A stretch of DNA of 62,567 nt, counting the filler, from Hausera hauseri (taxonomy: Eukaryota): the NCBI GenBank assembly GCA_046269625.1. It is 11 parts of 11 records of this genome, joined end to end, with 100 filler letters (N's around TTAATTAATTAA, not from the genome) between each part and the next. Parts side by side here need not be neighbours in the genome. Positions count along the whole stretch, not along the records: positions 11,889 to 15,866 come from JBJURY010843857.1; 10 more parts are not named here. The stretch is one strand, 5' to 3'. Under the pieces are notes generated by a model, which did no database searches, was not told the origin of the DNA, and saw nothing but the letters and a program-made list of their open reading frames with translations. Positions 14,287 through 15,074 of the stretch are shown piece after piece. Position numbers and translations under genes: made by a program. Position 1 is the stretch's first letter, and each line of letters starts with the position of its first letter.

Positions 14287-14622
14287 TCAATCAGAAATCG
14301 TACGACGACGACGTTTGTTTATAGCTGATACACTCAATGATGCTCCACATTTTCGTTTTTGCATCATCAAGCCACTGCCAGCGAATTGTTTTTTGACTGA
14401 TTCAACAACTCCCGGTGCTGTGCTTTTTATTTCGGACAATGCGTGTTCCTTCAATGATGGTAAAATCGATTTGTTTTCATATAGTACGTCCTGTTCTGTT
14501 TTTGTTGCCACTACACCAATACGCTTTAACACCGGAAATACTAAGCGTGCCAATGTACGCAAACATCCATAGTCATACTGTTTACTTCCATAATGATAGC
14601 TAATATCAATTATCGCGGACAT
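14287..14622 (-). CDS. Polinton core/membrane-active protein (adenovirus pVI/pVII-like, cupiennin-like amphipathic helix)
   Basis: KQYDYGCLRTLARLVFPVLKRIG amphipathic helix, adenain-type site FAGSG and Arg-rich C-terminus. It lies directly upstream of the MCP and is homologous to 20822-21040. Confidence 0.7.
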   Translation of the reverse strand: MSAIIDISYHYGSKQYDYGCLRTLARLVFPVLKRIGVVATKTEQDVLYENKSILPSLKEHALSEIKSTAPGVVESVKKQFAGSGLMMQKRKCGASLSVSAINKRRRRTISD

Positions 14623-15074
14623 GTTGCAGAGTGGTGTGATATTAACAACTACGTTTTAATCCGTGGAAGCCGAGGCAGTATGTACTCAAGTGTCCACCGG
14701 ATTTTACATGCATCGAATTTCTATAGGGAAAGTGTTGCATTATGGGTTGTCGCAAACCAATGACAGCTGACAACAGTAAACTGCTGCCATTCAGAATTGT
14801 TGTTGACTTAATCCAATCAATAACGGTAACAACTCAGTTAGACTACCACCAAACAATCAATCTGTACAAATTAGCAGTGGCCGCTGCTGAATGTACATAT
14901 GAACCCAAACTGTTTCCTGCACCGAGACTGACATTGTTTCCTTCGCTTTGTGTCAATGTGTTTAGCAGTGGAAAAATTGTTGTAGTCGGTGTTCCGACAG
15001 TGGCTTATGAACCGATTATTAATCAAATTAAAAATCAAATAATTGTTTTAGTAAACCAAAATAATGTACTCTGA
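14593..15074 (+). pseudogene. TATA-box-binding protein (TBP)-like gene carried by the Polinton
   Basis: Lobe 2 IQSITVTTQL...INLYKL...YEPKLFP...VNVFSSGKIVVVG aligns with TBP IQNMVGSCDV...IRLEGL...YEPELFP...LLIFVSGKVVLTG. Lobe 1 is reconstructed across one frameshift and one stop: MIANINYRGHV...KPRQYVLK...TCIEFL*GKCCIMG. Confidence 0.8.

Follow-up and report, generated by a model that had tools for sequence, protein, structure and literature searches.

The window analysed here, a stretch of 62,567 nucleotides (filler included) from Hausera hauseri, is a chain of short contigs with N spacers between them. It contains intron-split host genes and LTR and Tc1 elements, which suggest that the host is probably an invertebrate animal, and, on the contig at positions 11889–15866, a fragment of a Polinton/Maverick element carrying a gene similar to that encoding the TATA-binding protein (TBP). 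The features of this contig are as follows.

11889..15866, no strand assigned: decayed Polinton/Maverick fragment, occupying the whole ~4-kb contig between N spacers
12644..12964, minus strand: adenain-type protease gene with three stops (42% to an ORF at locus L058 that itself matches PF00770, E 3.7e-5)
13097..14251, minus strand: major capsid protein (MCP) gene with three stops (48% to the L012 MCP, E 5e-119)
14287..14607, minus strand: core-protein gene remnant (tblastn with the L039 core protein, matching at residues 17–101, E 3e-16), 5′ end missing, overlapping the TBP start
14317..14323, minus strand: TATAAAC box, ~70 nt before the MCP start, with a short TCAA repeat between
14593..15074, plus strand: TBP-like pseudogene of the form with a short lobe 1, with a frame change near 14632–14648 and a stop at 14724–14726
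15086..15092, plus strand: TATAAAC box, 36 nt before the ATG at 15123
15123..15224, plus strand: small acidic ORF of 33 aa
15468..15842, plus strand: SSB-like gene remnant with two stops (E 8e-13 to an L026 ORF), of a family that accompanies the TBP gene

The element fragment as a whole is decaying. Its Polinton gene content is limited to core, MCP and protease, whereas a Polinton/Maverick is defined by a single element carrying MCP, minor capsid and protease genes along with those for ATPase, integrase and pPolB. On this 4-kb fragment no terminal repeat was identified and no 6-bp target duplication reported. The contig belongs to a high-copy family, represented in contigs of four runs. The core and MCP labels are presumptive, the first resting on motifs and position and the second on position, neither gene having a Pfam match. 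No relatives of the 33-aa ORF were found among the 80 loci described below. A model built from a joint alignment of the SSB-like neighbour families weakly resembles the Enc34 SSB and ASFV CP312R (E 0.04–0.07). The same divergent layout is seen at locus L032, where ATPase, pX-like and integrase genes lie upstream of the TBP gene.

The TBP-like gene was picked out in the original prediction as a compact, intronless gene, and this description stands: the frame-3 piece at 14727–15071 matches PF00352 with E 2.2e-10 and 40.7 bits against a Pfam cut-off of 22.9, no intron is required for alignment, and both lobe-2 motifs said to hold intercalating phenylalanines (LFP and VFSSGK) are found in the sequence. 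The intact homologue P0001 aligns to positions 14593–14631 in one frame and to 14649–15086 in another (69% identical, E 4e-52), which puts a frame change at roughly 14632–14648. The window copy cannot make protein and is a pseudogene. It deviates at four of the 28 family columns that are at least 90% conserved, where intact relatives deviate at a mean of 0.57 and only two of 101 reach four. Lobe 1 had been described as both shortened and disrupted; the shortness is a family trait, as the window copy belongs to the short form, and the disruption is peculiar to this copy. Similarly, the gene had been placed beside core, MCP and adenain genes. All three are present on the opposite strand, with core at 14607–14350, but the adjacency of core and TBP is probably a deletion junction in this copy, since the core remnant is missing ~16 residues at its N terminus and runs into the start of TBP, and other copies have contigs that part from the window sequence near 14568.

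Elsewhere in the window, further Polinton pieces occur on other contigs (25845–29078, 18946–20373, 20858–21034 and 44656–45360), namely a broken, nearly full-length pPolB (41% to L012) along with fragments of pPolB and one of core. Fragments of a Monjiviricetes-type fusion glycoprotein (PF24664) are present at 61439–62120, adjoining LTR-retroelement protease and RT genes, and at 16032–17333 there is a single-ORF G-alpha fragment (PF00503, E 9e-22) with CDK-like fragments adjacent, possibly processed pseudogenes.

A TBP family in Polinton elements

With its frame change and stop, the window copy is of value as a pointer to a family. A query with the window piece identified nine relatives among 13 candidates, the best being 68% identical, and a profile search returned 604 proteins at E≤1e-5 among 4376 candidates, a count that includes cellular TBPs; the best 120 of the 604 are mostly family members of 144–160 aa. 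Intact relatives score 50–65 bits against the Pfam TBP model. No relatives were found in scans of viral_contigs. Of 84 loci from a metagenome scan 80 were kept, and 78 of these belong to the family; the other two (L079 and L080) were set aside as cellular-like, and family counts use the 78. On their AT-rich contigs, L079 and L080 carry divergent cellular-like TBPs with a residue other than Phe at the second intercalating position of both lobes.

A single ORF spans nearly the entire profile at 59 of the 78 loci, many of the others being truncated by contig ends. Polinton core genes are present at 34 of the 78, at 24 of the 32 loci of at least 3 kb, at 12 of the 15 of at least 5 kb and at all seven of at least 7 kb, in several gene orders. 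Genes for ATPase, integrase, minor capsid, core, MCP, protease and pPolB, the gene set of a Polinton/Maverick (adintovirus), are all present at L012 and L023; a search for intact copies linked to MCP and pPolB had been proposed as a check. The ATPase, MCP, minor capsid and core labels are in part presumptive, based on position, with Pfam matches weak or absent. Nor is the gene missing from other copies of the window element, which would have counted against it: the TBP part and the MCP are covered by contigs from all four runs, from four organisms, with 31,422 contigs aligned in run X1, which is possibly the window's own source. The median dN/dS across 15 disjoint family pairs is 0.21, with values of 0.06–0.26 in the 11 pairs with dS below 0.9 (the corresponding ATPase comparison comprises two pairs only). 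The TBP family is under purifying selection.

An SSB-like gene accompanies the TBP gene at 39 of the 80 loci. In a single record, the 357 aa P0141 reads as a natural fusion of a family TBP to its SSB-like neighbour. Accessory genes in TBP-bearing Polintons include those for a ubiquitin-conjugating E2 (L023:222-719, PF00179), an LRR protein (L033:1918-3327) and a protein with a zinc finger and KilA-N (L074:606-1739).

Phylogenetic analysis used 36 family rows and 50 rows chosen from ~150 cellular-like TBPs, which include insect TBP, plant TBP and sea-urchin TBPL1 and, knowingly at least, no giant-virus TBPs. The family rows fall on one side of a branch with SH-aLRT support of 100 and the cellular-like rows on the other, and the window TBP groups with P0001 and P0002 (support 99). 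In a thinned 52-row set analysed under a mixture model, the family branch has support of 98. AU tests (51 rows) reject grouping of the window gene with animal-type TBP (p 5e-8) and with TRF2 (p 0.002). That the gene began as a retrocopy of host TBP or TRF2, which inserted into the element and then decayed, would suit an intronless pseudogene such as the window copy, but its ~70% identity to intact element proteins, the purifying selection on the family and both AU rejections make such an origin barely credible, and we regard it as refuted by the tree branch, the family dN/dS and the AU tests. The window copy, ~70% identical to intact metagenomic proteins on a branch apart from cellular TBP/TRF2, is no host retrocopy, and nesting within host TBP/TRF2 with neutral decay, named as grounds for abandoning the idea, is not what was found.

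Predicted fold and DNA-contacting residues

The AF2 model of intact P0001 (pLDDT 94.6) predicts a TBP saddle in which helices are present in lobe 2 only, so that the canonical arrangement of H1 and H2 in both lobes is not retained. A comparison of the model with the PDB gave 44 matches at E≤0.001, those listed all being TBP, with a top E of 2e-8. The family linker is mostly 17–22 residues, compared with 32 in cellular TBP.

To survey individual residues, 101 family rows were set against 72 canonical TBPs, with yeast numbering mapped by us. Phenylalanine is kept at the F116, F190 and F207 positions in 100–101 of the 101 rows, leaving three of the four intercalating residues; the F99 position is K/G/W-like. 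The E-P-E stirrup is kept (in 96, 101 and 101 of 101 rows), as are N69 and P191. The second-lobe stirrup is the TFIIB-binding site of TBP, which also has contact sites for TAF1, Mot1 and Brf1. Residue numbers for such contact sites are not given in PMC13134418.

The residues facing DNA are changed in both lobes. I194, V203 and L205 are replaced by invariant R, C and N, and V71, V122 and T124, which lie in the lobe reading the box's 3′ half, by N, R and M. The first three are the positions altered in the specificity mutant TBPm3, according to PMC1636458, which also has the TBP N-terminal lobe contacting the 3′ half of the box, where C is disfavoured, in selections by TBP and TBPm3 alike.

Most of L060–L077, together with L081, form a long-form subclade of ~163–173 aa proteins encoded by PLA2-bearing elements. 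Lobe 1 is near full-length in these proteins, and both the DNA-face signature and the upstream box described below are the same as in the short form. The change in the DNA face therefore probably predates the shortening, and loss of the lobe-1 helices is not needed for the box.

A TATA-like box and its candidate reader

Of the 71 virion-module regions left after near-duplicates were removed, 58 have the sequence ATAAAC within 90 nt upstream of the ATG, compared with 5.6 expected: ATPase 18/18, MCP 9/9, pX-like 12/14, minor capsid 10/13, PLA2 8/9 and F12 1/8. It is found before TBP in 5/54 regions, and before TBP, SSB-like and F9 genes taken together in 9/73. The Fisher p of 9e-18 overstates the case, as the gene groups were defined after the upstream sequences had been viewed and the regions are mutually related. 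ATAAAC also precedes integrase (9/13), DEDD-like (9/12), LRR (5/5) and some SSB-like (3/5) genes, so the box is not strictly a virion-gene feature; it is common before protease and rare before core (1/6). Box positions are most frequent between −44 and −31, some 36 nt from the ATG, and the box is strand-specific, with one reverse-strand case among virion genes. The preceding base is T or C in 60 of 65 instances (TATAAAC 38, CATAAAC 22). A canonical TATA is present in 36 of the 73 TBP, SSB-like and F9 regions, with TCAYW mostly 29–34 nt further on. In the window, MCP and the small ORF at 15123 both still have the box upstream; over the window as a whole it is not enriched (19 observed, 28 expected).

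Five loci found through their ATPase served as a small control. L081, located in this way rather than by its TBP, combines a family TBP with the box. Where elements gave no TBP hit (L082–L084 and L090), the box is present in 0/14 regions, a control made up of four partial contigs of one lineage from two assemblies, with 51–59% GC, so that shared ancestry or GC could explain its being box-free. In L082–L084, GTATAAGA or GTATAG words, rather than ATAAAC, were seen before ATPase and pX-like genes, in few regions.

A different TBP-like gene, encoding P0297 (PF00352, E 2e-11), is present in another Polinton (L093:1278-2542, on the 22.9-kb contig G004:C86) and is directly followed by one encoding a TFIIB homologue, P0298 (PF00382 E 4e-6, PF08271 E 3e-5, human TFIIB E 6e-4). 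The pair is located near MCP, protease, integrase and pPolB genes. P0297 has a very long branch, and the MCP, protease and minor capsid genes on its contig are not preceded by the box. As this TBP was missed by the A2 profile and caught by Pfam, the A2 profile may miss divergent TBPs in other negative contigs. Neither phmmer with P0298 nor a zinc-ribbon pattern turned up a TFIIB-like gene in the window or at L001–L078.

An intact TBP in many related Polintons, together with capsid and packaging genes behind a shared non-standard TATA-like box, points to a likely late-gene switch of the element's own. The reading we favour, and hold to be somewhat better than an even bet, is that the window carries a dead copy of a Polinton TBP family whose intact members are likely late-gene promoter factors, with a predicted role in binding [T/C]ATAAAC in front of capsid and packaging genes and in recruiting host Pol II. 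The TBP gene itself would be expressed early, from an ordinary TATA and initiator promoter read by host TFIID. Its product would then bend the minor groove of the variant box, whose seventh base, C, cellular TBP disfavours, and host TFIIB would dock on the stirrup of lobe 2, which is intact. The short form, having lost its lobe-1 helices, would escape control of the host TAF1, Mot1 and Brf1 type. Family membership, linkage, selection, residue pattern and motif distribution are observed here and the fold is predicted; DNA binding, TFIIB docking, timing and the loss of host-regulator contacts we infer, ‘late’ coming from the type of gene. Against this reading are the rarity of the box before core and F12 genes, its presence before integrase, DEDD-like, LRR and some SSB-like genes, its lack of enrichment over the whole window, the ability of wild-type TBP to bind a C-variant box and the loss of the F99-position Phe. 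The idea of an element-specific late or capsid-gene factor, put forward in the original prediction, gains support at the level of the family: homologues are intact in Polintons and under purifying selection, and a matching box precedes virion genes. This dead copy cannot make the protein.

The box might instead be a late promoter read by host TBP or by another host factor such as a forkhead protein, with the viral TBP acting otherwise, for example in general boosting of element transcription. The commonest form, TATAAAC, is one base off canonical, and the following base is A in 51 of 65 instances, which fits a forkhead site (RYAAAYA). A C-variant TATA box has moreover been crystallised with wild-type TBP (PDB 1qn3), which can evidently bind it. 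A host reader nonetheless sits poorly with the 22 instances of CATAAAC, with the finding of forkhead-acceptable GTAAAC in at most one region per virion gene group, with the box being absent from elements with no TBP hit and with the selections in which TBP and TBPm3 disfavour C (PMC1636458); we consider it unlikely. More doubtful still is that the protein is a decoy for host TBP, soaking up TFIIB or occupying host TATA boxes and so dampening transcription in the host, without a specific function at the promoters of the element. Retention of the stirrup alongside loss of other partner surfaces would suit a decoy, which would have no need of an invariant, changed DNA face and which leaves the box before virion genes unexplained; the suggestion of a dominant-negative mimic of host TBP, also made originally, may still be right but gained no positive evidence.

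Some of the same data can be read in terms of replication or packaging, with the protein a DNA-bending partner of its SSB-like neighbour and the box serving either as the site it binds or as a poly(A)-type signal for the gene upstream. The frequency with which the two genes occur together and their fusion in P0141 agree with such a partnership, and 44 of 59 boxes begin within upstream coding sequence, some of them in a cluster 4 nt before its end. A poly(A) signal is nevertheless disfavoured: A precedes ATAAAC in only 1/65 instances, so the box is not AATAAA, of 28 virion-side genes for which no family ORF on the same strand ends within 200 nt, 24 still carry it, and its distance from the ATG (quartiles −48 to −31) varies less than that from the upstream stop (−52 to −2). 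We judge the replication or packaging role as improbable as the decoy.

If the late-promoter reading is extended, a broad group of animal-type Polintons may run a two-stage programme with host Pol II, in which an early, host-type TATA promoter drives a re-specified and progressively shortened TBP that alone switches on virion genes via a private YATAAAC box, a second lineage doing likewise with its own TBP and TFIIB. We put the chances of this wider scheme at about even.

Significance and comparison with known systems

We know of no described mode of capsid-gene expression in Polintons. Vertebrate Maverick particles, for their part, had not been observed, according to PMC8097293. A dedicated TBP and matching box would amount to a concrete late-gene switch that can be tested, and would give late promoters a recognisable sequence mark, and the family would offer a natural case of a TBP whose sequence suggests changed specificity and whose model suggests stripped partner surfaces. 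Were the two-stage programme true, no smaller viral TBP switch would be known, and it would directly show that these ‘transposons’ have a late, virion-making phase.

Viral TBP-like factors are already known in herpesviruses and giant viruses. For Polinton-type elements, the only mention found is a ‘TBP’ label in the legend to Fig. 5 of Starrett et al. 2021 (PMC8502044), for at least one midsize virus with an adintovirus-like PolB; the entry comes with no family, structure or promoter analysis, nor does the text of Supplementary Fig. S2 carry such a label. TBP and TATA go unmentioned in the main texts of 10.1101/2023.08.22.554363, PMC11161782, 10.64898/2026.10.13.758929 and 10.64898/2026.06.19.733378, and in that of PMC12220804 the term occurs only as an author name. 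Repbase, subscription papers and supplements may mention the gene.

In common with cellular TBP (PF00352; PDB 1ytb, 1cdw, 1mp9) and TRF2/TBPL1, the family has a two-lobe saddle, a second-lobe EPELF stirrup, the F116, F190 and F207 phenylalanines and the N69 position. It differs in having no N-terminal tail, in the absence of lobe-1 helices from the short form, in not keeping F99, in carrying R/C/N at I194/V203/L205 and N/R/M at V71/V122/T124, and in its separate branch in the tree. Most TBP-bearing Nucleocytoviricota encode their own RNA polymerase; no such polymerase was found among the recurring gene families of the TBP-bearing loci. Nucleocytoviricota TBP homologues, such as those of Heterosigma akashiwo virus and Terrestrivirus, match the family in fold (E 1e-7 to 1e-4), but identity is 17–19% at best.

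The closest functional parallel may lie with the beta- and gammaherpesvirus vTBPs (BcRF1, ORF24, UL87), which, according to PMC4893493 and PMC7498053, read TATT late boxes with host Pol II. Shared with these are a viral TBP-like protein, a variant TATA box before (putatively) late genes and the lack of a viral RNA polymerase. The fold match to BcRF1 is weak (E 4e-3). No large protein with an N-terminal Pol II CTD-binding domain was found, the proteins being mostly 144–173 aa with three longer hits among 7995 scored in a weak search. The family thus differs from the herpesvirus vTBPs in its size (~150 aa), in lacking an N-terminal domain that binds Pol II, in showing no trace of the six-protein complex, in being far nearer to cellular TBP in sequence and in the box, which is YATAAAC rather than TATT. 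By analogy, it likely works as the herpesvirus late-gene vTBPs do, together with host TFIIB and Pol II.
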